DNA of 36,986 nt from a virus (taxonomy: Duplodnaviria; Heunggongvirae; Uroviricota; Caudoviricetes). Positions within the stretch are counted from its first letter, which is position 1. The number at the start of each line of letters is the position of its first letter. Positions 412 through 15,679 of this stretch are shown one piece after another. The position numbers and the translations under genes are program-made. Under the pieces are notes generated by a model. It was given only the letters and a program-made list of their open reading frames with translations, had not been told where the DNA came from and did no database searches. The stretch lies in the IMG/VR virus record IMGVR_UViG_2671180460_000002. One strand, written 5' to 3'.

Positions 412-1059
412 TCATGCTGATTTTTTACTTACAGATTTTGTTTCTTGCTCCGGTGTGACATCGGTCTGATCACCCGGCGATTGTGGTCGTATATGAGATT
501 CAACAATTCGCAAAATCTCTCTGTCAGTATCTTCGTTTCCATGTAATGCTACTCGGATTGCATCCTTAAGTGATTTCCTGATATTCAGACTTTGGATAGC
601 ATTCTCTTGCTCCTCCAGCGTGTTAGCGGCTTGTTTCGCTTGCCTAGTGGGTTGTTGCAGACGTTTTAGGATTCCTTTGATACCCATATCACATATTGCA
701 TTTATCAATAGTTCTTTATCTTCTGTGGACGCTCTTTTCAATAACTCGTTAGCTAGCTCGTTTGTAATATCGGGAGAAGGCTGCGCTGTTTGGTTTGATA
801 AAGAGTTTGCTGTGGCGGTGAGTTCCTCACCATAAGCGAGCCAATTTAAACTTACCTGCTCTTTATCTGAGATAAGGCAGGCTATTTTAAAAGAGGGTTC
901 TGTTCCTTTATGGATGTAGTTGTTTAAGGTTGAAGGAGGGATACCCCAGTCGCTCGCGGCAGTTCTGACACTGCGCCCACCTATTAGTTTTACTAAACGC
1001 TCTCTAAAACTTTCTTTTCCTCGGTCAACTAAAGAAAAAGCGTCATCATTTTTTGTCAT
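412..1059 (-). CDS. prophage repressor (Mu c-like position), HTH DNA-binding protein
   Basis: Leftward ORF at the left end, divergent from ner. ATG at 1059 is preceded by AGGAAAGG; the track start at 1092 is a TTG. HTH-like segment ...RSVRTAASDWGIPPSTLNNYI... Confidence 0.6.
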   Translation of the reverse strand: MTKNDDAFSLVDRGKESFRERLVKLIGGRSVRTAASDWGIPPSTLNNYIHKGTEPSFKIACLISDKEQVSLNWLAYGEELTATANSLSNQTAQPSPDITNELANELLKRASTEDKELLINAICDMGIKGILKRLQQPTRQAKQAANTLEEQENAIQSLNIRKSLKDAIRVALHGNEDTDREILRIVESHIRPQSPGDQTDVTPEQETKSVSKKSA

Positions 1060-1192
1060 TTTTCCTTTCCTATTTAACCAATTGATTTTCAATCACAAAA
1101 CTATATAAAGACCAAAAGCAAAAAGAAAATACAAAGAAAAGGCTATTTTTGCTTTACATGGGTTACATATGGATCAATACTTATATCCGAAG

Positions 1193-1241: not shown

Positions 1242-1478
1242 ATGATGGTTAGAAATGAAGTAATGAACCTGGACTGGCACCGCGAGTACATTGTCGCAGC
1301 TGTGCACACCAAAGGTTTTACATTGCGTGAACTGTCTGTTCGCGCTGGTCTAAAAAAAGACTCTTTAAAAAATGCATTGTATCGCTCATGCCCTAAATAT
1401 GAACGCATCATAGCCGATGCTATTGGTGTGGAACCTGCGGAGATCTGGCCAAGCCGGTATGCCAGTAAGGCGGCATAA
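1242..1478 (+). CDS. ner: Ner-like DNA-binding regulator
   Basis: Translation contains DWHREYIVAAV...IWPSRY, matching Mu Ner (DWHRADVIAG...IWPSRY). Stop overlaps the transposase start. Confidence 0.85.
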   Translation: MMVRNEVMNLDWHREYIVAAVHTKGFTLRELSVRAGLKKDSLKNALYRSCPKYERIIADAIGVEPAEIWPSRYASKAA

Positions 1479-3520
1479 TGTTTTATTCAGCCAATGAACT
1501 GGCCGGTCTTACTGGTTTGCCCGGTACAGTTCAGGGGGTGCGCTGGACGCTCAATCGGATCACAGAGACGCACCCGGAATGGAAGCGCAAGCGTGAAGGC
1601 ACCAAAGCATTCGAGTATCACATCGACTGCCTGCCCGCTGAAGCGCAGAAGGTTTTACGTAAGCGCCTGACTCATCAGGTCCTGGAAGATGCACAACTGC
1701 CCGCCGTGGTTGAGCAGAAGGCAGTTAAAAACGTCGCCGTTCGTGATGAACTGGAAGTGATGGTCAAATGCCCGGAACTGGCATTACGCGAAGTTCAGGC
1801 ACTGACCGACAAGCAAAAGGCCATCGCTGATGCGCGGATATTGCTGGCTACCGAAGTGCATAAACTGCGTGAATACGCAAGAATGTCCAGGACGGCAGCG
1901 ATAAAACACATTGTTGATGGTATCCGCCAGGAGGCTTTGCCCGAGCGCGTTATTGTGGCAGGTAATACCGCCAATGCCCGACAGGGTAAGCGAACTGGCG
2001 TCAGTACAGGGAGTTTACAGGAATGGTATTCCGCCTGGCTGATGGCGCGCGGTGATGCCAATCAGTTACTGGCGTTACTGGCTCCCGGTCATCATAAGGG
2101 AACACCGTGGGAGCAGGTTTGGTGGTTGAGCGATTTCTTTATGTTCTATCGCTCATGGAAGCGCCCGACCGTTGAATATGCGTATCGCGAGTTTTCAGCC
2201 TGGTGGCATGAAAAACACGCGAACGATGCGGGAATGCTGGCGGCACTGCCTTCAGTTCACGCAGTAAGACGGGTGTTAAGCAGCGTCCCGGTGATTGTTA
2301 AAGAGCGTTTCCGCTCCACCGGTTCAGCCTGGCGTTCGCTCAATCCCTTTGTGCGACGCGACTGGAGCACATTACCGGTTAATGCGGTATGGGTCGGGGA
2401 TGGTCACTGTATGAAAATGACCGCGTTTAACCCCCTGACCGGCAATATTTTCCGGCCAGAAGTGACGCTGGTTATGGATGCGGGGCAGCGCTTTGTTGTG
2501 GGCTGGTCGCTGTCCCTGTCGGAGAACGTGATAGCCGTTGCTGATGCGTTACGTTACGGCATGGCGCAGCACGGGATACCGCTGATTTATTACTCCGATA
2601 ACGGGGGCGGCGAAAAAAACCGGGTACTTGATGCCGATATTACCGGGATTCTGCCCCGTCTGGGTGTGGAACATCACACGGGGATACCAGGTAACCCACA
2701 GGGGCGCGGGGTGATTGAAAGGCTTAACAAGGAAATTCCCCGGGATGTGGCCCTGAGTTTCCGGACGTACTGCTCAAAGGGAGCAGACAAGGAAACCGTA
2801 ATGATGCAGCAACGGATTATGCAGTCAGCCATTAAGGCCACCCACAAAGGGAAAGAGCTGACAAAACGGCAGGTTAAGTCAAGGGATGAAATCCCCACCT
2901 TTGAGCAACTGATGGCAGCTATAGAGCTGGAGGTCAGACGCTATAACAACCGGCCACACAGCAGCCTTCCCCGCAAAGAGGATGGCGAATATTACAGTCC
3001 GGCAGCGTATCGCCGGAAACTGATAAAAGAACAGAATGTTGAAATTGATTTTCTGTCGCCGGAAGAGCTGCATGAAATGTTCAGACCGGAGGTGACGCGC
3101 AAAACATTTCGCGGGGAAATTCAGTTATTCAACAATATTTATTACTCGTATGAGCTGGCAGCAGAGCACGGAAATGAAGTCAGGGTTTGTTACGACATTC
3201 ACGACGCAAACAGCGTGATTGTCAGGCGGATGGACGGTTCTTATATCTGCGATGCCATCTGGAACGGTAATAAGGTTGATGCGTTCCCGAAAGCTGTTAT
3301 CGAACAGCAGCAGGAGAAACGCGCCAGAGGCCGCATTGCACGGGCCACGCAGAAAATCGAAGAGGCTAAACGCGAGCTTACCCCGGCTATTACGCAGAAG
3401 CCTGACTTTAATTTTGGATGTGGTCTGGAGCGTAAGGAGGAAAAGAAAAAAGAAGAACTTTATTTCTTTGCATCCGAGCGTGACCGCAATTTAAAGAAAG
3501 ACGGCACAAACAACCGTTAA
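1478..3520 (+). CDS. Mu-type DDE transposase (MuA-like)
   Basis: 680 aa, immediately after ner. N-terminal winged-helix-like region followed by a large catalytic core, size and position as for MuA (663 aa). Confidence 0.9.
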   Translation: MFYSANELAGLTGLPGTVQGVRWTLNRITETHPEWKRKREGTKAFEYHIDCLPAEAQKVLRKRLTHQVLEDAQLPAVVEQKAVKNVAVRDELEVMVKCPELALREVQALTDKQKAIADARILLATEVHKLREYARMSRTAAIKHIVDGIRQEALPERVIVAGNTANARQGKRTGVSTGSLQEWYSAWLMARGDANQLLALLAPGHHKGTPWEQVWWLSDFFMFYRSWKRPTVEYAYREFSAWWHEKHANDAGMLAALPSVHAVRRVLSSVPVIVKERFRSTGSAWRSLNPFVRRDWSTLPVNAVWVGDGHCMKMTAFNPLTGNIFRPEVTLVMDAGQRFVVGWSLSLSENVIAVADALRYGMAQHGIPLIYYSDNGGGEKNRVLDADITGILPRLGVEHHTGIPGNPQGRGVIERLNKEIPRDVALSFRTYCSKGADKETVMMQQRIMQSAIKATHKGKELTKRQVKSRDEIPTFEQLMAAIELEVRRYNNRPHSSLPRKEDGEYYSPAAYRRKLIKEQNVEIDFLSPEELHEMFRPEVTRKTFRGEIQLFNNIYYSYELAAEHGNEVRVCYDIHDANSVIVRRMDGSYICDAIWNGNKVDAFPKAVIEQQQEKRARGRIARATQKIEEAKRELTPAITQKPDFNFGCGLERKEEKKKEELYFFASERDRNLKKDGTNNR

Positions 3521-3537: not shown

Positions 3538-4431
3538 ATGAGTTTAATTACGCAATTAAATGACGTAATGGCCCGTCGCGGCTATACACAAACCCACGTT
3601 GCCCGTGCTATTGGTCGTAGCAGCGCCGTTATCAACCAGTATTTGCAGGGTAAATATCAGGGCGATATCACTGATATCGAAGAGCGAATTTCTGCCTTTG
3701 TCAGCCGTGAACGGGAAAAAGAAAACAACCGGCGTGTAAAAGCAAGTTTTGTGACTACAGGTATGGCCGCCAAAGGGTTGGAGGCACTGGCCTATGCTCA
3801 TCTGGAGTGTGAAATTAGCGTGTTGTATGGCGCGGCAGGTCTTGGCAAAACAATGATTTTGCGCGAATACGCCGCCAGAAACCGGGACGCAATACTGATT
3901 GAGGCTGACCCGGGCTATACAGCCAGGACACTGCTGGAGGAGTTGTGCCGCCAGTTGGGGGTAAAGGTTCGCGGCAATATTCACGAACTGATTAATGCCT
4001 GTGTACACGAATTGCGTGACTCCGGTCGCCTGCTGATGGTGGATGAAGCCGAACTGCTCCCCTATCGTGCGCTGGAAGTTCTGCGTCGTCTGCATGACAA
4101 GGCGGGCGTCGGTGTTGCCCTGGCTGGTATGCCGCGCCTGTTGATTAATCTTAAAGGCAATCGTGGGGAGTTCGCGCAGCTATACAGTCGGGTGGCTCTT
4201 TCGCTGGACCTCGGCGATACGCTGGCGCAGAAGGATTTCATCCAGATAGCCGCTGAACTGATGCCGGAAGCAGCAGCGCCTGAAATCTGTGAAGCACTTT
4301 ACACACGCTCACGGGGTAATGCCCGACGCCTGTTTAAACTTGTGCGTGGGGTCTACCGGATTTGTGATATCAGCGATGCCCCGGTCAGCGTGCAGGCTAT
4401 TGATGATTTCGCGGAAATGTTAATTCACTGA
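3538..4431 (+). CDS. MuB-like AAA+ ATPase, transposition target DNA activator
   Basis: 297 aa with Walker A GAAGLGKT and N-terminal HTH-like segment; directly downstream of the transposase as in Mu. Confidence 0.85.
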   Translation: MSLITQLNDVMARRGYTQTHVARAIGRSSAVINQYLQGKYQGDITDIEERISAFVSREREKENNRRVKASFVTTGMAAKGLEALAYAHLECEISVLYGAAGLGKTMILREYAARNRDAILIEADPGYTARTLLEELCRQLGVKVRGNIHELINACVHELRDSGRLLMVDEAELLPYRALEVLRRLHDKAGVGVALAGMPRLLINLKGNRGEFAQLYSRVALSLDLGDTLAQKDFIQIAAELMPEAAAPEICEALYTRSRGNARRLFKLVRGVYRICDISDAPVSVQAIDDFAEMLIH

Positions 4432-4444
4432 GTAAAGGTCAGGT

Positions 4445-4777
4445 ATGGAACAAATTGCCATTAAAAAAGAAATTAAAGCACTACGGAATATCGGTCGTAA
4501 TGGTTGTATTTATTTTAATGGATCCCCCGGTGAAATTATTCCGTTTGTTGATTGCTTCGTGCCGAGTGAACTGCGCATTGATTTGTATTCCCGGGAAAGG
4601 GAAATCAATGGAATCGGAAATACCAGTGATGACTGGGACGTTGATGAATGCTGCGCGCGATTAATGATTATCCCTTTTGAGCAGAATTTACAGGGGTTTC
4701 GTCGGGCTTATCGTCTTGCGCGTATGTGTGCCCGTCTTCCCCGTTATCAGCCACGACTTGCGTTTGCACTCAGATAA
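4445..4777 (+). CDS. hypothetical protein (early accessory region)
   Basis: ORF in an AT-rich early region, ATG at 4445. Confidence 0.35.
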   Translation: MEQIAIKKEIKALRNIGRNGCIYFNGSPGEIIPFVDCFVPSELRIDLYSREREINGIGNTSDDWDVDECCARLMIIPFEQNLQGFRRAYRLARMCARLPRYQPRLAFALR

Positions 4778-4815
4778 TGCAGCGCAGAACTGTTAATTCA
4801 CTGATGGAGAACAAA

Positions 4816-5043
4816 ATGATAGACAAGCAGACCATTAATGCCGTCCGTTCCCGTGCCCGTGTGGCCATCCACACCACCGGTGGTCGTGTAACGGGACAGC
4901 ATCACCGTTTACCTGTGGTTTATGCCTGCCCACCCGTGGGTGGTCCTGTATGGCCGGTAACGGAAATCATCCAGACATTCAGCGGCCTGCGTCGTGTGGT
5001 TAAAACGTCCTGTATCGACGGCTGCACCGTCGTATGGCAATAA
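4816..5043 (+). CDS. hypothetical protein
   Basis: ATG at 4816 preceded by GGAG; the track ORF from 4726 probably over-extends. Confidence 0.35.
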   Translation: MIDKQTINAVRSRARVAIHTTGGRVTGQHHRLPVVYACPPVGGPVWPVTEIIQTFSGLRRVVKTSCIDGCTVVWQ

Positions 5044-5058
5044 AACGAGGAATTAAAA

Positions 5059-5310
5059 GTGAGCGTGAAATTAACAATAGTATTTACCGACCTGGGTAAT
5101 AACCAGTGCCATAACCTTATTCGGGTGGAAAATGGCGACAATGCCACACTCGAAGAAGCGGCAAGAACTCTGGGGACTGTCGGCGCTATTTGTACGGTTC
5201 TGAAGGAGAAACACGGAAATGAACGGCTTGATCTGCAAATCTACCATGACTACGTGAAACAACTGGCACAGGGATGTCCGTATATTCCTCAAGAAACACA
5301 AATGCATTGA
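5059..5310 (+). CDS. hypothetical protein
   Basis: GTG start at 5059 preceded by GAGGAA. Confidence 0.35.
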   Translation: MSVKLTIVFTDLGNNQCHNLIRVENGDNATLEEAARTLGTVGAICTVLKEKHGNERLDLQIYHDYVKQLAQGCPYIPQETQMH

Positions 5311-5320
5311 GAGATGAAAA

Positions 5321-5512
5321 ATGTCACTGGAGCTTGAATTAACTTTCAGCCTGGACAGGCCAGGTAAACCGGAGAAAGCCGTCGCGACGTATCAGTTGTC
5401 GCCTGATGTCACGGGAGAGCAGGTTTCCGACATTATCATAAAAACTCACTGTTTTATGAACGAAATTATTTTTAAATCGTTTGATTTCAAAGGAGAAAAA
5501 TATGGCGGTTAA
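5321..5512 (+). CDS. hypothetical small protein
   Basis: ATG at 5321 preceded by GAGAG; 63 aa. Confidence 0.3.
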   Translation: MSLELELTFSLDRPGKPEKAVATYQLSPDVTGEQVSDIIIKTHCFMNEIIFKSFDFKGEKYGG

Positions 5513-5717
5513 GTTAGAAGTAATTATCTATACCGATGAAAACGGTACGCTTCGTGTCAGGAGTATGGGGGCTGTTGATAAAAAAGGATTTACGGATGAA
5601 GAGGTCGGTGTAAGACAACGGTTATGGGAGGTAATGAATCAAACGCTTAATAAAGAATTTAACGGCGTTGATTTATTTTCTGTTGGCGTGGAACCCTGCG
5701 CACATAACACACATTAA
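5502..5717 (+). CDS. hypothetical small protein
   Basis: ATG at 5502 preceded by AGGAGAAAA; overlaps the previous ORF end. Confidence 0.35.
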   Translation: MAVKLEVIIYTDENGTLRVRSMGAVDKKGFTDEEVGVRQRLWEVMNQTLNKEFNGVDLFSVGVEPCAHNTH

Positions 5718-5746
5718 TCTGTAAATATCACTGAGGTAATTTAATT

Positions 5747-6391
5747 ATGACGACTGAAAATAAAGTTAAGCAATACACGAAAACTGAAGCGCCTGAAGGT
5801 TACTGGGTGGATGCACGTGGCGTAATGACACCTGAAAGCCTGATTAAGGATATTGACCGCGACCGCGAGCAGCTGGTCGGTGAGATTGTCGAACTGGTGA
5901 TTGCTGCCTCCGCCTCGCTGCGTGATTTGAAACTGCGCGCGTTTGGCGATATTCAGGCATTTATTGACCTGTCGGCTGAGAAATACGGCGCTGTGAAAGG
6001 CGGTAAAAAAGGGAATATCACGCTTTACAGCTTTGACGGGTGTTACAAGATTCAGCGCGCCATGCAGGACCGTATCGCGTTTGATGAACGCATTCAGACC
6101 GCGAAGTCGCTGATTGATGATTGCCTGGCTGACTGGACGGAAGGTGCACGCCCTGAAATTAAGGCCATCATCAGTGAGGCATTCAGCACGGACAAGGAAG
6201 GCAACATCAACACCGGTCGCGTTCTGGCCCTGCGTCGCCTCGAGATTGAGGACGAACGCTGGAATAACGCCATGTCACTGATTGGTGAAGCCGTCCAGGT
6301 GATTGGCAGCAAAAGCTATATCCGCGTGTATGAGCGCGTCGGTGATTCTGCTGAATACCGCGCAATCCCGCTTGATATTGCAGGGGTTTAA
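5747..6391 (+). CDS. hypothetical protein, resembles DUF3164-type proteins of Mu-like prophages
   Basis: 214 aa acidic protein at the position after B where DUF3164 proteins occur in Mu-like phages; assignment from memory, not searched. No resemblance to Mu Gam. Confidence 0.45.
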   Translation: MTTENKVKQYTKTEAPEGYWVDARGVMTPESLIKDIDRDREQLVGEIVELVIAASASLRDLKLRAFGDIQAFIDLSAEKYGAVKGGKKGNITLYSFDGCYKIQRAMQDRIAFDERIQTAKSLIDDCLADWTEGARPEIKAIISEAFSTDKEGNINTGRVLALRRLEIEDERWNNAMSLIGEAVQVIGSKSYIRVYERVGDSAEYRAIPLDIAGV

Positions 6392-6392
6392 C

Positions 6393-6626
6393 ATGCATCA
6401 GGATATCAAAGAGTACAGAGCCAGAAATAGTTGCGCGGCGTATTCGCTGGGCGCGTCCAGAGCAGAACAACGCGGCGATTATGCCGAAGCTGAAAAACTG
6501 TGGCGTAAGGTAGCACAAAGCCCGTGTAGTACCCTGCGCCGCATCTGGGCGGAACACCGGGCAGAGTTCTGTGCCAATGCTCACCTGAAAGGATGGAAGC
6601 CGCCTCATGAACGCGAAGAACTTTAA
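6393..6626 (+). CDS. hypothetical protein
   Basis: ATG at 6393 one nt after the preceding stop; 77 aa. Confidence 0.35.
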   Translation: MHQDIKEYRARNSCAAYSLGASRAEQRGDYAEAEKLWRKVAQSPCSTLRRIWAEHRAEFCANAHLKGWKPPHEREEL

Positions 6627-6798
6627 TCAGTTATATCCGCCAGGAACTCGCTTCATGCACATTGCACACCCGGCACTGCGTGGTGGTCGTGTGGTGAAAA
6701 CCGTTTCACCTGCCAGAGATTTTAAATGTGGTTGTGTGGTTGAAATTAATGTCGAGCCTTATTTCGTTAAAGTCGAAACGCTGAAAGCACCGCATTAA
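6607..6798 (+). CDS. hypothetical small protein
   Basis: 63-aa ORF overlapping the previous gene by 20 nt. Confidence 0.3.
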   Translation: MNAKNFNQLYPPGTRFMHIAHPALRGGRVVKTVSPARDFKCGCVVEINVEPYFVKVETLKAPH

Positions 6799-6805
6799 TT
6801 TAATT

Positions 6806-6864
6806 TGTTTTTAATTGTTATTTAAAACAGGCGTAAATCCGCCGGGGCTGGCTTACGCCTGAAT
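6806..6864 (+). repeat. 58-bp direct repeat copy 1: AT-rich TGTTTTTAATT box followed by GC hairpin GGCGTAAATCCGCCGGGGCTGGCTTACGCC
   Basis: Near-identical copy at 7432-7489. Hairpin stem GGCGTAA/TTACGCC; no U-tract follows. Confidence 0.7.
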
Positions 6865-6879
6865 TAAGGGGATTTGTAT

Positions 6880-7425
6880 ATGAAAGATAAAGTCTGGGAT
6901 TTTATTGTTTCTCCTGAAGGTTTTGCTACCCGTTCATCTGAGAAGTTAACCAATGTAACGTTATGGGCTTCATCGTTGCTGGGACGTCTGGGAGGACCCG
7001 GTAGTTTTATGGATGTGGTACTTAATGCCCAGATTGCCGGGAATGCTATGGCCAGTAAGGGGGCTTATATTCAGGGGGATTTGTTCGCCATGATGGCAAA
7101 TGACACGGTGGCACTGTACCTCGCGACACGCAACATACTGACAAGAATATCCATGCAGTCATGTAGGGAGGGTATGGAAGACCTCCGGGACATTCTTGAA
7201 GGTGATTTGCTCACTATTTCAGGCGTGCAGGAATCCCTCCCGCGTCAGCTGCGGTTTATTGACCTGATGGAGTCATATAAAGATAAGCCTGATTTTTTTC
7301 AGATTCGATTCAGCGGAATGGAACTGCTGGATGAATATTATCCGCTGGATTCGATTTCCCGTGATGTGAAGGCGTTCGTAAAGTCTGTTGACCGTCATTA
7401 CCGGAAAGCTGAACGTCGTAGTTAA
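6880..7425 (+). CDS. hypothetical protein (AT-rich cargo gene flanked by direct repeats)
   Basis: ATG at 6880 with AAGGGG RBS 8 nt upstream; the track start at 6874 is a TTG. Visibly lower GC than the late region. Confidence 0.5.
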   Translation: MKDKVWDFIVSPEGFATRSSEKLTNVTLWASSLLGRLGGPGSFMDVVLNAQIAGNAMASKGAYIQGDLFAMMANDTVALYLATRNILTRISMQSCREGMEDLRDILEGDLLTISGVQESLPRQLRFIDLMESYKDKPDFFQIRFSGMELLDEYYPLDSISRDVKAFVKSVDRHYRKAERRS

Positions 7426-7431
7426 TAAGTC

Positions 7432-7489
7432 TGTTTTTAATTTTATTTGTATATGGCGTAAACCCGCCGGGGCTGGCTTACGCCTGAAT
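7432..7489 (+). repeat. 58-bp direct repeat copy 2 (same AT box plus hairpin)
   Basis: Matches 6806-6864 with a few substitutions; ends 16 nt before the ATG at 7506. Confidence 0.7.
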
Positions 7490-7505
7490 CTGAGGAAGTT
7501 TATTT

Positions 7506-7688
7506 ATGAATATCGCTAAGCAAAAAAAATTCTCCCGCGAAATTAATCTGACAATTGTTTGTTTTAATCGTCTTGCGACCAGTTCTCAGTCGACAGCAGA
7601 TGTTCATTCAGTACCGCAGCCAGAACGAACTCCCCACGTTCCTGAAGGCTGTGCCGGAAGTTGTGTAATTCAGAATTCAGGATGCTGA
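7506..7688 (+). CDS. hypothetical small protein
   Basis: ATG at 7506 with GAGGAAG RBS, positioned after hairpin copy 2 exactly as 6880 is after copy 1; coding quality uncertain. Confidence 0.3.
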   Translation: MNIAKQKKFSREINLTIVCFNRLATSSQSTADVHSVPQPERTPHVPEGCAGSCVIQNSGC

Positions 7689-7701
7689 GGTTCAGACGAC
7701 C

Positions 7702-8412
7702 ATGAAAGATAAATACATTGCCAAAATCAAAAAACTGTTACGCCTTGCCAGAGGAACATCAAGCCCGGAAGAAGCCGCTAACGCTATTGCAAAAGCCCAG
7801 GCTTATATGCGCCAGCATGGTATCAGCGAAAACGACGCGGAATTGTTCGACATTCAGGAAGCTGCCAGCGCGGGTGCGCCGAGTGATGCCAGTACGCCGC
7901 CGCTTTATATGCACATCCTGTGTGACCTGGTCTGTAAAGCCTTCGGTGTCGAGTGTTACATCTCCGGCGAATACCGGGCTTCTGGTTCACTCAAACGTTA
8001 CGTGCGTTTTTATGGTTCTGACAGCCGCCCGGAAATTGCGGCCTATGCGTTTGATGTGCTTTCCCGTCAGATGATGGCAGAGCGCAAGAAATATCAGGAT
8101 AAACACTGCAAACGTTGTGGTCCGTCCACGCGGGTAGCCCGTGGCGACCAGTTCTGCGAAGGCTGGGCCTTTGGTGCCCGTGACGTGATTACGGTGTATG
8201 ACGTCTCCCCGGAAGAGAAAGGTCGTATTGAGCTTTACCGGCAGAGCCTGCACAGCTCTAAAGGGCTGCGCGAAGGGAATATGCGCACAGCTAAAGCGTG
8301 TCGGGGTGCAGAGTTTGCCGCTACTGCGGGTTTTATCGCCGGGAAAAACGCCAGACTGCATCAGGGGGTTAATGGTCAGAGCAACAGACCGCTGGCACTG
8401 GGGAGGGGATAA
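7702..8412 (+). CDS. hypothetical protein with DUF2786-like N-terminus
   Basis: N-terminus MKDKYIAKIKKLLRLARGTSSPEEAANAIAKAQ resembles the DUF2786 motif common in phage and plasmid accessory genes; from memory. Confidence 0.5.
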   Translation: MKDKYIAKIKKLLRLARGTSSPEEAANAIAKAQAYMRQHGISENDAELFDIQEAASAGAPSDASTPPLYMHILCDLVCKAFGVECYISGEYRASGSLKRYVRFYGSDSRPEIAAYAFDVLSRQMMAERKKYQDKHCKRCGPSTRVARGDQFCEGWAFGARDVITVYDVSPEEKGRIELYRQSLHSSKGLREGNMRTAKACRGAEFAATAGFIAGKNARLHQGVNGQSNRPLALGRG

Positions 8413-8414
8413 CG

Positions 8415-8642
8415 ATGGCTTTTAAACTTCTCAGTGTTACCGAAGCAATATACCAGCCGCCAGGAGAACGCCACGAATACAGGATGAATGACGGCAGCGC
8501 GGCGGTTGAGTTTCCCAAATATCCGGGGGCTTCCCGGTGGCGGTTCTATGACAGTGTGGGACGCCGGATTATTAAAAGAACCGTGCACAACGCCATGAAA
8601 GCCGCTGTAGAACGTCACAAAAGGAGGTTTAACTGCAAATGA
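8415..8642 (+). CDS. hypothetical protein
   Basis: ATG at 8415 preceded by GGGAGGGG. Confidence 0.4.
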   Translation: MAFKLLSVTEAIYQPPGERHEYRMNDGSAAVEFPKYPGASRWRFYDSVGRRIIKRTVHNAMKAAVERHKRRFNCK

Positions 8643-8869
8643 ATATTGAATTTTATAACTATGGGACTAAAGCAAAAATCATTGTTACCTGCTGGCTCTG
8701 GGAGTTTCGCCGCTATAACCGGGTTGTGGATGCGGCGCTGTTTGCGGCCCCTGAAGTGCACCATCAGAGCGGTGGCGGTCTTTTAATGAGAACCGTCATC
8801 TACGGTAAGACGGTCCCGATGTTACGGGCGTTTAAAGTGGCAAAACAGGAGGCTGGCAATGGTCATTGA
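8639..8869 (+). CDS. hypothetical protein
   Basis: ATG at 8639 preceded by AAGGAGG; overlaps the previous stop. Confidence 0.4.
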   Translation: MNIEFYNYGTKAKIIVTCWLWEFRRYNRVVDAALFAAPEVHHQSGGGLLMRTVIYGKTVPMLRAFKVAKQEAGNGH

Positions 8870-9149
8870 TAAAACGATAACGATAGATGTAGCCATGAAT
8901 GCAGGCATCGCTCTTCTCGGTTGGTGTTACATCATGCTCCGCGCCGGGATGTGGCTGTCCCTTGTATTCCTGAAAACATGGAATAAGCACCGTAAACAGA
9001 CGCAGCAGCAGAAGGCAATGAATGCGTTTTTTGAGGCCTTCGATATCGACAGTATAGAGCCGGGAGAACCAACCCGCGTTATCCCCGTAGGTGATGTCGT
9101 GATTTTGGTATACCGGAGTGAAAAGAATGAACAGGAGGTGGCGCAGTGA
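8859..9149 (+). CDS. hypothetical protein with one predicted membrane helix
   Basis: ATG at 8859 preceded by CAGGAGG; hydrophobic stretch AGIALLGWCYIMLRAGMWLSLVFL. Confidence 0.4.
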   Translation: MVIDKTITIDVAMNAGIALLGWCYIMLRAGMWLSLVFLKTWNKHRKQTQQQKAMNAFFEAFDIDSIEPGEPTRVIPVGDVVILVYRSEKNEQEVAQ

Positions 9150-9310
9150 ACCAGCAAACCAGAATAAGCGATAAGAGTCTGACCAGACTGATTGCTGATG
9201 CGGACAAGGTGCTGGAGCGGAACACCCCGGTTGCCGATGAGGAATGGTGGCAGGATTTCCGGGCCGCAATGCTGGAACTTCAGGAACGTCGTCGGGAGGA
9301 GTTGAAGTGA
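9146..9310 (+). CDS. hypothetical small protein (54 aa)
   Basis: GTG at 9146 overlapping the upstream TGA, AGGAGG 8 nt upstream. Not in the supplied track because it is under 60 aa. Confidence 0.3.
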   Translation: MNQQTRISDKSLTRLIADADKVLERNTPVADEEWWQDFRAAMLELQERRREELK

Positions 9311-9330
9311 GCAAGGTGAAAGAGCGCGGC

Positions 9331-10014
9331 ATGATTTTTAATGATGAGATGGTCCGGGCCATCCTCGAAGGAAGGAAGACGCAGACTCGCCGACCTGTAA
9401 AAAATGTCAGGGCCGATAACTGCCTGGTTATCCGTAAACCGACAAAGAAACGCAATGGTGTCTATACCCACGTTATGGATGCACCTGAACATGGTTTATG
9501 CCCGTTCGGTAACGTTGGTGATCGCATATGGGTCCGTGAAGCGTGGGCGATATTAGGCAATGAGGATGGTTGCAGTGTGGACTGGAACGACAACCTTTGT
9601 CGTGGCGATGAGAAGAACGCAGCAAGGATTTATCGGGCCAGTTGTGAGCAAAAACCGGGGGATTATGGCTTATGGTCGATACCCGATGATGCCGACTGGA
9701 AGCCTCACACTGTGAATGAAAAGTTTGATGGTGGGTGGCGTCAATCAATTCACATGCCGCGCTGGGCTTCGCGTATTTTGCTGGAAATTACCGACGTGCG
9801 TGTGGAACGGCTGCATGACATGAGCGAGGCAGATGCTAAAGCGGAAGGTGTATCTCCGGCAACGTACAAAATTACGCCGCCGGAAGCTGTTTATCGCGTT
9901 GGTTTTGGTGATATCTGGCGCGGTATTTACGGGCAAGAGAACTGGCTATCTAACCCGTGGGTATGGGTAATTGAGTTTAAGCGTATTCAGGAGAAAACCA
10001 GTGAGCAAGATTGA
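9331..10014 (+). CDS. hypothetical protein with ASCH-like N-terminal motif
   Basis: MIFNDEMVRAILEGRKTQTRRP...WVREAW resembles ASCH (PUA-like) domain signatures; from memory. Confidence 0.45.
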   Translation: MIFNDEMVRAILEGRKTQTRRPVKNVRADNCLVIRKPTKKRNGVYTHVMDAPEHGLCPFGNVGDRIWVREAWAILGNEDGCSVDWNDNLCRGDEKNAARIYRASCEQKPGDYGLWSIPDDADWKPHTVNEKFDGGWRQSIHMPRWASRILLEITDVRVERLHDMSEADAKAEGVSPATYKITPPEAVYRVGFGDIWRGIYGQENWLSNPWVWVIEFKRIQEKTSEQD

Positions 10015-10594
10015 CTATCAGGCACTGCGAATGGCGGCAGAAAATGCAACACCAGGCGAATGGTGTACTGATGACTACCATGGGGTAATTGCCGATGCCG
10101 GACTGAACGCAAATTACTACATAGCATCATGCTCAGGACCAGATAATCGCTCCAATAAGCGATTCATAGCCGCAGCCAATCCGGCTGCTGTGCTGGTACT
10201 GCTGGATGAACTGGAGTATTACAAATCACGCGAAGAGCGGGTTACAAAGCTGGTTATGGATAACTCGACAAGTTGGGATGCTCTTTACAAGCAGCTGGAA
10301 GCCGCAGAGAAGCGCATAGCAGAACTGGAAGCACGGGAAACAAAACCAGCCAAAGGCGAAGTTCTTGTCGTTGTATCTGGTTTTACTGGTTGCGGAAAAA
10401 GCGCCATTGCCGGGGAAATAGAAATCGCGATGAAGGCTATTGGTGTACCGGTTAAGTGGACTAATGGCGATGCAGAAAAGCGCATGACTGGCGCTGACTG
10501 GCTGACAGCAATTGAGATGTACAAACCAACTGTGCGCATCGTGGAAGTTAATGTGCCACGCGTCGCTGGCATTCGCATCAAAGGAGGTGAGTAG
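10001..10594 (+). CDS. Ead/Ea22-like protein
   Basis: ...ATPGEWCTDDYHGV...NKRFIAAANPAAVLVLLDELE resembles the conserved N-terminal region of lambdoid Ea22-family proteins. GTG at 10001 with AGGAG upstream; alternative ATG at 10031. Confidence 0.5.
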   Translation: MSKIDYQALRMAAENATPGEWCTDDYHGVIADAGLNANYYIASCSGPDNRSNKRFIAAANPAAVLVLLDELEYYKSREERVTKLVMDNSTSWDALYKQLEAAEKRIAELEARETKPAKGEVLVVVSGFTGCGKSAIAGEIEIAMKAIGVPVKWTNGDAEKRMTGADWLTAIEMYKPTVRIVEVNVPRVAGIRIKGGE

Positions 10595-10767
10595 TGCGTG
10601 TGGCATGTATCGGCTTGTTACCGTACCCGACTCGTTTTTGGGCTTCTGCGCTAATTGCAAAGCCGTATGTCCTGATGGCTGACAGCATCATCCCTGCACC
10701 GAAACGCCGTACAGGCATTGCGGCGGCGAGACGAGCAGCAAAGAAACGCAGGAGAACAAAACGATGA
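10594..10767 (+). CDS. possible small basic protein (57 aa)
   Basis: GTG at 10594 with GGAGG 7 nt upstream; stop overlaps the next ATG. Weak. Confidence 0.2.
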   Translation: MRVACIGLLPYPTRFWASALIAKPYVLMADSIIPAPKRRTGIAAARRAAKKRRRTKR

Positions 10768-10946
10768 AAAACCGTAAGGCAAAAATTCTGTTAGCTCGCA
10801 GAAACGGTGTTGGGATCTGGCGATGGTTGAGGATTAGTAACAGACGAGTGAGGTTGACGGGGTGTTGCGGGGTGATGGGGCACAGCTGTTGCAAAAAGCC
10901 CAGCGCGGCGCAAAACCGCTGGAAGAATCACACTAACGCAAAGTAA
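10764..10946 (+). CDS. possible small Cys-rich protein
   Basis: 60-aa ORF, ATG overlapping the previous stop; weak. Confidence 0.2.
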   Translation: MKNRKAKILLARRNGVGIWRWLRISNRRVRLTGCCGVMGHSCCKKPSAAQNRWKNHTNAK

Positions 10947-10966
10947 TTAAATAATAACCAATAACA

Positions 10967-11010
10967 GACCAAAACATATGTTTTGGTCTGCCAAAAGTAG
11001 TGTTTTGGTC
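10967..11010. promoter_or_regulatory. twin palindromes GACCAAAACATATGTTTTGGTC and GCCAAAAGTAGTGTTTTGGTC
   Basis: Perfect 22-bp palindrome at 10967-10988 immediately followed by an imperfect copy, just upstream of the ATG at 11014. Confidence 0.5.
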
Positions 11011-11013
11011 ATT

Positions 11014-11292
11014 ATGAAGATTGAACAAATCGGAATGGCAGCCTTCCGGCAACAGGCTGAAAGCGGTGGTGTGGATGAGTTCGTCGTGCAGCGGTTCGGT
11101 GGTGTGTATCACCTCTTCGCTGTGAATCGCCGCGCCGGGGTGTCCTATTTTCTACAGGAACGCCGTGGCGATTACAAGACGTGGCTGTCTCTTGACCGTG
11201 CCGCCGCGTTCCTGTCGGGGATTGGTGTTTCTCGTTTTACCGTGCGTTTTGAGGATAACAAACATGCTGAAAAAGATGATCGGAGCCATTAA
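11014..11292 (+). CDS. hypothetical protein
   Basis: ATG at 11014 after the twin palindromes; the track start at 10978 lies inside the palindrome. 3' end overlaps the GemA-like gene in another frame. Confidence 0.35.
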   Translation: MKIEQIGMAAFRQQAESGGVDEFVVQRFGGVYHLFAVNRRAGVSYFLQERRGDYKTWLSLDRAAAFLSGIGVSRFTVRFEDNKHAEKDDRSH

Positions 11293-11677
11293 AGCCGGTC
11301 AGGCGTATCTGGGGTGGGATGATGCCCTTTATCGCCAGACACTGGCTCGCCTGACCGGTAAAACCAGCACCACACGCTGCAATCTCGATGAACTGCGCAT
11401 CATCCGGGAATACATGCACGAACAGGGATTTCCGCGCAAAGCGCCCGCCGGTAAAGGTCGCCGCCCCCGTGTTGCAATGAGCAGAAAATCGGTATTATCC
11501 AAAATTGAGGCGTTGCTGGCTGATGCCGGTCGTTCCTGGGCGTATACGGAAGGACTGGCATCTCACATGTATAAGCAACATGTGATCGAATGGCTGACAG
11601 ATGATCAACTGTTCGGGGTGATGGTGGCGCTGACAAAAGACGCCAGAAAACGAGCCAGAGCAGCACGTAAACAATAA
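11264..11677 (+). CDS. GemA-like protein (DUF1018-type)
   Basis: N-terminus ...AIKAGQAYLGWDDALYRQTLARLTGKTSTTRCNLDELRIIREYMHEQGF matches the GemA/gp16 pattern; position just upstream of the Mor/C gene as in Mu. Confidence 0.55.
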   Translation: MLKKMIGAIKAGQAYLGWDDALYRQTLARLTGKTSTTRCNLDELRIIREYMHEQGFPRKAPAGKGRRPRVAMSRKSVLSKIEALLADAGRSWAYTEGLASHMYKQHVIEWLTDDQLFGVMVALTKDARKRARAARKQ

Positions 11678-11682
11678 AGAAT

Positions 11683-11710
11683 CAGCCCCTGCCTTGCAGG
11701 GGCTTTTTTG
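11683..11710 (+). terminator. intrinsic terminator ending the early operon
   Basis: AGCCCCTGC-ctt-GCAGGGGCT stem-loop followed by TTTTTTG, 6 nt after the GemA-like stop. Confidence 0.7.
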
Positions 11711-11713
11711 TGG

Positions 11714-11743
11714 TCTGTACAGGCGATCATGTATGGCTATAAT
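11714..11743 (+). promoter_or_regulatory. putative sigma70-type promoter for the Mor/C-family gene
   Basis: Consensus -10 TATAAT at 11738-11743, 30 nt upstream of the start codon; -35 is weak (TGTACA). Confidence 0.4.
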
Positions 11744-14938: not shown

Positions 14939-15679
14939 ATGCAAAAACAGATTATTGGTAACGCAACGTTGTATTGCGGTGATGTTCTTGATGTGCTGCC
15001 GGCGTTATCTGAACGTTTTGATGCCGTCATTACCGACCCGCCTTACAGCAGTGGTGGCACACACAAATCAGACCGCAGTATGGCCCCTTCGGACAAGTAT
15101 GTCGGTCACACCCACTATGCCGAGTTCAGCGGGGATAACCGCGACCAGCGCAGCTGGGCATACTGGAGCACCCTGTGGATGTCCGGGGCTGCCCGCCTTG
15201 TGCGCCCCGGTGGTTATTTCATGGTGTTCAGTGACTGGCGACAGCTTCCCACCATGACCGACGTTTTTCAGGCCGGTGGTGTGCTGTGGCGTGGTCTGGT
15301 TGTCTGGGATAAAACGCAGGCTTCCCGTGCGCCACACACTGGCTATTTCCGGCATCAGGCCGAGTATGTGGTCTGGGGCAGCAACGGAAAACTCGACAAA
15401 TGCCCGCACGGTGGCCCGTTCCCGGGTGTGATTACGCAGCGTGTTGTCCCGTCCGCAAAACTGCACATGATCGCAAAGCCGGTTCAGCTGATGGCCGAGC
15501 TGGTTAAACCGCTGGCACCGGATGCGCACGTTCTCGATCCGTTTATGGAAAGTGGCACCACCGCCATCCCTGTACTTGCCCGTGGCGGACGGTTTACCGG
15601 CATTGAAATGACTAACCAGTATTTTGATATCGCCTGCGCACGTATCGAAAAAGCGCAGGCAGAAGCAGCGCAGGTGTGA
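14939..15679 (+). CDS. DNA methyltransferase, beta-class amino-MTase (N6-adenine or N4-cytosine)
   Basis: Motif IV DPPY (AVITDPPYSSGG) near the N-terminus and motif I (LDPFMESGTT) near the C-terminus; this order defines the beta class. No restriction partner nearby. Confidence 0.85.
   Translation: MQKQIIGNATLYCGDVLDVLPALSERFDAVITDPPYSSGGTHKSDRSMAPSDKYVGHTHYAEFSGDNRDQRSWAYWSTLWMSGAARLVRPGGYFMVFSDWRQLPTMTDVFQAGGVLWRGLVVWDKTQASRAPHTGYFRHQAEYVVWGSNGKLDKCPHGGPFPGVITQRVVPSAKLHMIAKPVQLMAELVKPLAPDAHVLDPFMESGTTAIPVLARGGRFTGIEMTNQYFDIACARIEKAQAEAAQV

Follow-up and report, generated by a model that had tools for sequence, protein, structure and literature searches.

A Mu-type semi-essential early region in an Escherichia coli prophage: a probable inherited backbone with exchangeable cargo and a conserved stem-loop

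In phage Mu, the semi-essential early region runs from kil to gemA and holds 14 open reading frames (ORFs). It belongs to the long early transcript that also carries A and B, and its removal restores the viability of infected cells (PMC3325207). Lambdoid phages carry 'ea' or exo-xis regions (lambda ea22, P22 ead, phiV10 p48-p50, and their Stx phage counterparts), whose non-essential early accessory genes belong to the early-left (PL) operon. Proteins of the ANR family (Aar, Cnr-2) bind AraC/XylS-type activators and the H-NS oligomerisation domain (PMC5570504), while the N4-acetylcytidine amidohydrolase YqfB of E. coli has the catalytic residues Lys21, Thr24, and Arg26 (PMC9599836). Here we compare these systems with positions 4445-11300 of IMG/VR record IMGVR_UViG_2671180460_000002, a stretch of 36,986 nucleotides referred to as a whole as the window. 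The window is a Mu-like transposable prophage of E. coli that is only distantly related to Mu (31% identity to the Mu protein for B, 21% for A), and 4445-11300 holds the small early genes that follow its MuB gene.

This region is an ordinary, well-delimited Mu-type semi-essential early region with a mosaic of cargo. As in Mu, it begins just after B and extends up to GemA/Mor, its small ORFs are packed on a single strand, GemA forms its right end, with a Kil homologue close to the left one, its middle part holds a homologous stem-loop, and one gene, o110, is a probable relative of gp8. Unlike the Mu region, it has no Gam and no detectable homologue of gp6, gp7, gp9, or gp11-gp15, and a terminator separates GemA from Mor. 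Mu in turn lacks the DUF3164, ANR, and DUF2786/DUF7168 proteins and the lambdoid/P1-type cargo present here. The original prediction had taken these ORFs for the counterpart of the Mu region and expected host-interaction genes there. Position and organisation bear this out, since the array occupies one strand between B and GemA and is closed by a strong intrinsic terminator, and three of its products (the Kil homologue, the ANR-family protein, and GemA) are of the host-interaction type. We consider it likely that the region combines an inherited backbone with four cargo hotspots, is co-transcribed early, has its third hotspot bracketed by stem-loops, and carries the functions proposed below. 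The backbone layer, vertically inherited, would consist of kil, o71, DUF3164, ANR, o63b, DUF2786/DUF7168, o75, o76, o104, and GemA. The cargo layer would consist of o110, o83, o63a, o181, DUF4752, o54, ASCH, Ea22, o57, and o60, exchangeable genes taken up at the four insertion hotspots. All features and their coordinates are collected in Table 1.

The two layers come from a presence matrix, in which every gene was compared by tblastn with ten E. coli relatives, and from 25 loci with MuB relatives in other genera. Kil, o71, DUF3164, ANR, o63b, DUF2786, o75, o76, o104, GemA, and Mor are found in all ten E. coli relatives. Across the other genera only DUF3164, o63b, DUF2786, o75, GemA, and Mor are retained, sometimes with ANR; DUF3164 is the most conserved backbone gene, o63b is kept in most other genera, ANR in some, and the DUF2786/DUF7168 gene in 10 of the 25 loci (about 40%). 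Cargo genes are distributed quite differently among the ten E. coli relatives: the ASCH gene is in none of them, o110 and the present Ea22 allele are in two each, o83 in three, o63a and o57 in four each, o181 in six, DUF4752 in seven (as two alleles), and o54 and a divergent o60 in nine each. The backbone gene o71 also has two alleles, about 50% identical, and relatives match the present one at either 94-100% or 46-52% identity. Separating core from variable genes by comparison thus divides what had first been described as a single accessory region: about half of the genes are exchangeable cargo, and the description does not fit the other half, which is vertically conserved.

Cargo is found at four junctions: B/kil, kil/o71, o63b/DUF2786, and DUF4752/o104. 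Where o110 is absent, kil adjoins B directly. In the window, a 22-nt direct repeat (4410-4431 and 4783-4804, 91% identical) lies on either side of o110 and corresponds to the junction between the 3' end of B and the kil leader, an arrangement mirroring the repeat-bounded o181. The cargo of the DUF4752/o104 hotspot is common to P1, lambdoid 'ea' regions, phiV10, Stx phages, and Yersinia phages. Ead/Ea22, o57, o60, and DUF4752-type genes are held in common with the lambdoid regions at 58-94% protein identity and are non-essential early accessory genes there too, but here they lie in the early operon of a transposable phage. The Ead/Ea22-like protein is 58% identical to phiV10 p48 and 30% identical to lambda Ea22, the latter likeness being confined to the N-terminal 124 residues. 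Fragments of the region are present in 1487 E. coli genomes as well as on plasmids, as against 57 genomes for MuB, which shows the cargo to be in circulation among unrelated elements. The hotspots of AT-rich, horizontally exchanged cargo that had been foreseen are therefore supported by both mosaic matches and composition. The GC content of the region is 0.493, compared to 0.567 in the late genes (12001-35000), and is lowest in o110, o83, o63a, o71, o63b, and o181. The general AT-richness thus stands, but the segment 4445-5720, cited earlier as an example of it, is mixed, with kil at a GC content of 0.56.

Gene families were searched in Pfam-A 2025, PHROGs v4, and NCBIfam, and ten ORFs were also scanned with PADLOC-DB 2.0. 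It had been stated that no ORF could be given a function and that none resembled Mu Kil; both statements have to be revised. Eight genes belong to named families, and the remaining small ORFs match only function-unknown PHROGs. The Kil ORF covers positions 1-78 of the 79 in PHROG 2679 ('Kil protein for bacterial septation inhibition'), with an expectation value (E) of 2e-37. It also aligns with Mu Kil, which has 74 amino acids (aa) to its 75: BLASTP gives E 2e-5 and 34% identity over the C-terminal 44 residues, in which the terminal GC-x-(I/V)(I/V)-W motif is contained, and hhalign gives E 3e-4. This homologue, found in every E. coli relative, corrects the view of a lineage without Kil, and it would arrest host division or kill the cell. 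When every gene family was compared by hhalign with every Mu early protein, Kil alone scored. A link between o110 and Mu gp8 (E7) appeared only with the deeper family alignment A4 (probability 88%, E 3e-6, N-terminal 62 columns), making o110 a probable distant relative of gp8.

The reported lack of Gam, on the other hand, was confirmed: no ORF of the region has a Gam match in the three libraries, and BLAST of these ORFs against Mu Gam found nothing. DUF3164 occupies the position of Gam in Mu. As a Gam homologue it was rejected (hhalign probability against Mu Gam, 1%), and so was a Ku-like fold, the protein having no likeness in sequence or fold to either Gam or Ku. Sequence searches of the PDB gave nothing significant for DUF3164, DUF2786, ANR, or the ASCH-fold protein (the last whole, as a profile, or without its insertion). 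No literature concerned by title or abstract with DUF3164 or DUF2786 function was found, and a search on DUF4752, DUF7448, DUF7168, and PmgT gave nothing relevant among the papers listed. What stands at Gam's position is thus a conserved protein without an assignable fold. A tentative possibility is that the backbone (DUF3164, o63b, DUF2786/DUF7168, o75, and o104) serves phage DNA transactions such as replicative transposition, end protection, or replication restart rather than host takeover, with DUF3164 as a non-homologous replacement of Gam. Its place in the array points this way, as does the occurrence of the same stem-loop after Mu gam and after the DUF3164-o63b block, and DUF3164, o63b, DUF2786, and o75 are among the few genes kept across genera. 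However, besides the missing likeness of DUF3164 to Gam or Ku, the five proteins have no known domain, and Mu can grow without its corresponding region (PMC3325207).

Under the reading preferred here, that of a Mu-type semi-essential region, the other backbone genes with named families would act on the host or on gene expression. The ANR-family protein passes the NCBIfam cut-off and is small, as is Aar of enteroaggregative E. coli; unlike Aar, it is encoded in a phage early operon, and not in a virulence regulon beside an AraC-type partner. It would sequester H-NS and/or AraC-type regulators, and in countering H-NS silencing it would fit an AT-rich early operon, which makes this phage-borne protein a possible H-NS antagonist. 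GemA would modulate gene expression. Most likely, a single long early mRNA covers ner, A, B, and this region and ends just after GemA. Five promoter-like sites were found inside it, none convincing, compared to 9.2 expected by chance, and an intrinsic terminator follows the GemA stop codon. This terminator is followed, before Mor, by a promoter-like TGTACA-16-TATAAT (10 of 12 positions matching), the two sites together lying in 11684-11743. With a terminator after GemA and a promoter-like site before Mor, the place of Mor in transcription may differ from that in Mu, where it is simply the final gene of the early transcript. Some relatives have an extra gene of 158-174 aa between GemA and Mor, which the window lacks.

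The most interesting element found is the stem-loop that brackets cassettes at the o63b/DUF2786 hotspot. In the window, o181 lies between two leader copies of 81-82 nt, with an identity of about 84% over the 56-nt core that they share, and each copy contains the stem-loop followed by a ribosome-binding site and an ATG; relatives without o181 have a single stem-loop copy. Copies bracket units of one or two genes in the window and in nine other loci, and the segment in between differs by phage (o181; DUF7448 with o181; a 105-aa protein; or 125-aa and 129-aa proteins). Other cassettes seen at this hotspot in relatives carry DUF7448, a 121-aa gene, or a 125-aa gene (four loci, among them L001 at 7097-7483). 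Outside E. coli, the stem-loop is found about 40 nt 3' of the o63b homologue in 13 of the 15 other-genus loci examined, while a 14th has it with one G-U change, and across Mu-like prophages of many genera its spacer is N15-17. In IMG/VR the bare 14-base pattern occurs at no fewer than 120 loci; among the matches listed there are 49 Mu-like early regions, and in 48 of these the stem-loop comes 34-64 nt after o63b. Mu and its close relatives have a counterpart, GGCGCGA-N16-TCGCGCC, about 45 nt after gam (6368-6397 in Mu); its upper stem is identical in type (GCGTC-AGGG-GATGC), and two base pairs of its lower stem differ by compensatory changes. Over 32 distinct versions, 92.8% of the cells are paired and five pairs show compensatory changes, the covariation score being reached by none of 500 shuffles and slid controls being 23-39% paired; these values apply to mutually related sequences, most of which were found via their invariant arms. 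The stem-loop was rejected as a plus-strand intrinsic terminator: it has no U-run, its stem being followed by TGAAT or AAAAT, and the terminator scan that flagged the GemA terminator passed over it. An Rfam search of the whole window, stem-loop included, matched no family, and no description of the element was found in a brief literature search.

We read this stem-loop as a conserved cis element whose conserved sequence would also make a crossover point for the exchange of cassettes. Its duplicated copies bracket the third-hotspot cassettes downstream of the DUF3164-o63b block. It seems quite doubtful to us that it is both a functional early-operon element (in RNA processing, stability, or antitermination) and an integrase-free recombination site for cassette capture. 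With its palindromes bounding gene units, the arrangement has an integron-like look, but ordinary homologous exchange at a conserved linker gives the same picture, and no Pfam integrase match was found among the ORFs of 4445-11300 and ten other window ORFs scanned. If true, the idea would mean that Mu-like phages have a small cassette system without an integrase. The cassette-bracketing stem-loop could explain how such early regions diversify.

At the fourth hotspot, the ASCH-fold cargo gene has DNA-level matches to P1 pmgT and to genes of Yersinia phages, and the protein has at least 8000 homologues. It narrowly misses the Pfam ASCH family (PF04266; 16.9 bits, threshold 21.2), and 24 of 33 members of the PmgT-like family also give sub-threshold matches to PF04266 (best E 3.9e-4). 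The structural model has the ASCH beta-barrel, and the protein is filed as ASCH-fold on this predicted structure. The family motif is GRKTQTRR. Within it, K24 and T27 never vary and R29 hardly does, and the three are spaced like the three catalytic residues of YqfB. Two glutamates (E78 and E180) are also invariant, neither being singled out as the equivalent of YqfB Glu74. The protein is twice the size of YqfB and has the extra 75-residue insertion. It would bind or hydrolyse a modified nucleobase. We know of no PmgT-like protein with a known activity, and a very widespread member of this kind that retains the YqfB catalytic motif is a testable item.

Anti-defence genes had been expected in this region above all, and here the prediction was not borne out. 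No ORF matches a known anti-defence family (Ocr, ArdA/B, Ral, Gam, anti-CRISPRs, Tad, Gad, Acb, and others, as described at the library dates) in Pfam-A 2025, PHROGs v4, or NCBIfam. The PADLOC-DB scan of ten ORFs found no defence protein, only a chance-level Csm2 match (E 0.003), and no literature linking Mu-like early regions with anti-defence was found. The sole recognisable anti-restriction-type gene of the window lies outside the region, at 14939-15679; this orphan N6/N4 DNA methyltransferase (PF01555, E 3e-20) is located between DUF1804 and the large terminase. We judge it rather unlikely that one or more cargo genes (o110, o83, o63a, o181, ASCH, or the Ea22-o57-o60 set) inhibit host immunity, being expressed early and protecting the replicating phage. 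Such genes would be expected to look much as these do: the candidates are sporadic among close relatives, o110, o83, o63a, and o181 are AT-richer than the backbone, their location is an early operon with repeat boundaries, and ASCH, Ea22, o57, and o60 are common to unrelated temperate phages. Sporadic, AT-rich, early, repeat-bounded, and widely exchanged genes carry the usual signature of counter-defence cargo, and ASCH-fold members can act on modified nucleobases (YqfB, PMC9599836; BapA, bioRxiv 10.64898/2026.02.25.707755). However, the argument is one from context alone, set against the empty family searches, and o181 is an E. coli-only orphan: its 21 protein clusters all come from E. coli and are at least 79% identical. 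A frameshift interrupts o181 in L042, a prophage copy that does not differ otherwise, and this suggests that the gene is dispensable. It is very improbable that some cargo provides the lysogen with prophage defence or exclusion, for instance through an ASCH/PUA-like protein sensing the modified DNA of superinfecting phages. The PADLOC result speaks against this, there is no attached effector domain, nuclease or other, and genes inside a repressor-controlled early operon with no promoter of their own detected should be silent in a lysogen. For the semi-essential region as read here, the map of backbone and cargo reduces the candidates for a screen of toxicity or anti-defence activity from 20 ORFs to some ten cargo genes.

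Several points weigh against this reading as a whole. Besides Kil, GemA, Mor, and the probable gp8 relative, there are no detectable homologues of Mu early proteins, so that the functional analogy with Mu is positional only. The likeness to Mu Kil is limited to the C-terminal half, and 'septation inhibition' is the PHROG annotation label of the Kil family. The usual home of ANR proteins is in the regulons of AraC-type activators. The ASCH protein falls below the Pfam threshold, and its insertion lies outside the structural model. Finally, o104 and GemA may be under separate control: directly upstream of o104 there are two tandem operator-like palindromes of the GACCAAAAC-N4-GTTTTGGTC type, GACCAAAACATATGTTTTGGTC and GCCAAAAGTAGTGTTTTGGTC, 22 bp apart and kept in all ten E. 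coli relatives, along with a weak promoter-like site at 10927-10955 (9 of 12 positions matching).

Table 1. Features of the early region and its surroundings (positions in the window)
Feature	Position	Strand	Remarks
CI-type repressor	412-1092	-	left end
Ner-like gene			left end, with repressor, transposase, and MuB
Mu-type transposase (A)	1478-3520		left end
MuB-type ATPase (B)	3538-4431		left end
o110	4445-4777	+	110 aa; variable, between B and kil; GC 0.438, third-position GC (GC3) 0.36
Kil homologue	4816-5043	+	75 aa; PHROG 2679; inside ORF 4726-5043 of the original prediction
o83	5059-5310	+	variable; phrog_35084, E 3e-60; GC 0.456
o63a	5321-5512	+	variable; phrog_38867, E 9e-47; GC 0.417
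o71	5502-5717	+	backbone within E. coli; phrog_7438; 11-nt overlap with o63a; GC 0.407
DUF3164 protein	5747-6391	+	PF11363, 268.8 bits, E 3e-80; position of Gam in Mu
ANR-family small anti-activator	6393-6626	+	77 aa; NF033650, 52.5 bits (cut-off 32)
o63b	6607-6798	+	63 aa; backbone; phrog_5591; stem-loop downstream; GC 0.453
Stem-loop, copy 1	6830-6859	+	GGCGTAA-N16-TTACGCC; in leader 6799-6880; -17.9 kcal/mol, z -3.3
o181	6880-7425	+	cassette between the two stem-loop copies; phrog_7741; GC 0.467
Stem-loop, copy 2	7455-7484	+	in leader 7426-7506
3' remnant of 72-aa gene	7567-7704	-	WP_000564495 in relatives; tblastn, residues 27-72, 78% identity
DUF2786 + DUF7168 protein	7702-8412	+	236 aa; backbone; PF10979, 49.1 bits, E 5e-13; PF23771, 97.9 bits, E 5e-28
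o75	8415-8642	+	backbone; phrog_9400; 10/10 E. coli relatives, 9 other-genus loci
o76	8639-8869	+	backbone within E. coli; phrog_1001; 10/10 relatives, 71-94% identity
DUF4752 protein	8859-9149	+	variable; PF15944, 123.8 bits, E 3e-36; relatives 97% or ~60% identical
o54	9146-9310	+	phrog_14672; relatives at 60-98% identity
ASCH-fold protein (predicted)	9307-10014	+	cargo; P1 PmgT-like; ~75-residue insertion
Ead/Ea22-like protein	10001-10594	+	PF13935, 75.5 bits (cut-off 27)
o57	10594-10767	+	cargo; 93% identical to phiV10 p49
o60	10764-10946	+	cargo; 94% identical to phiV10 p50; also in Stx phages; phrog_1380
Two tandem operator-like palindromes	10965-11010		directly upstream of o104 ATG 11014
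o104	11014-11292	+	backbone; phrog_7844; 10/10 relatives, 96-99% identity; 29-nt overlap with GemA
GemA	11264-11677	+	right boundary; PGAP 'regulatory protein GemA' in relatives; weak BLAST match to Mu GemA
Intrinsic terminator	11684-11704	+	after GemA stop; 9-bp stem, 7 G-C pairs, then TTTTTT; -18.1 kcal/mol, z -4.3

The gene model combines the ORF listing with a scan for start codons and Shine-Dalgarno sequences. It holds 19 credible plus-strand genes and one doubtful ORF, in keeping with the approximately 20 short, packed ORFs first reported between 4445 and 11300. An independent gene caller gave the same coordinates on at least five identical prophage copies at different insertion sites, and PGAP calls on relatives agree for the shared genes. 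The tight packing and frequent coupling described at first reading were found again: the coding fraction is 0.93, and 10 of the 18 junctions overlap by 1-20 nt (ATGA/GTGA type or longer), with three further junctions gapped by no more than 15 nt. The doubtful ORF (7506-7688) is antisense to the minus-strand gene remnant and probably spurious. The parent gene of this remnant is intact in four relatives, and compared to L001 and L030, the window is missing about 170 bp with the 5' part of the minus-strand gene and its upstream region. In relatives, the 3' end of this gene faces the conserved stem-loop, followed on that strand by GTTTTAAAT.

The MuB gene of this lineage is present in 57 of 5426 complete E. 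coli genomes (about 1%), in copies that lie at unrelated chromosomal sites and interrupt host genes there; the Mu-like prophage of strain E2348/69 is a member of the same lineage. An exact-protein look-up placed the same prophage variant, in which o110 and the ASCH gene are both present, in no fewer than 20 contigs. Neighbouring genes differ in the five places shown for identical copies, and the variant therefore appears to transpose. GemA, Mor, and the lysis, head, and tail genes come after the early region. The right-end ORFs that were scanned include no mom-like gene; a tail-fibre assembly gene is the last of them to match a family.

A few observations concern single genes. The o110 protein has no match in Pfam, PHROGs, NCBIfam, or PADLOC, and its family is small, with 19 representatives at 50% clustering. 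When o110, o181, and Kil were compared by tblastn with the phage collection, no match was obtained. Low-stringency Pfam searches with ten small ORFs gave chance-level matches only, such as a KOW-like one for o63b (E 0.2). The o104 protein probably has 92 aa, starting from ATG 11014, the longest ORF beginning at 10978. In the Ead/Ea22-like protein, residues ~128-195 contain a Walker-A-like GFTGCGKS and give a chance-level match to adenylyl-sulfate kinase (E 0.007).

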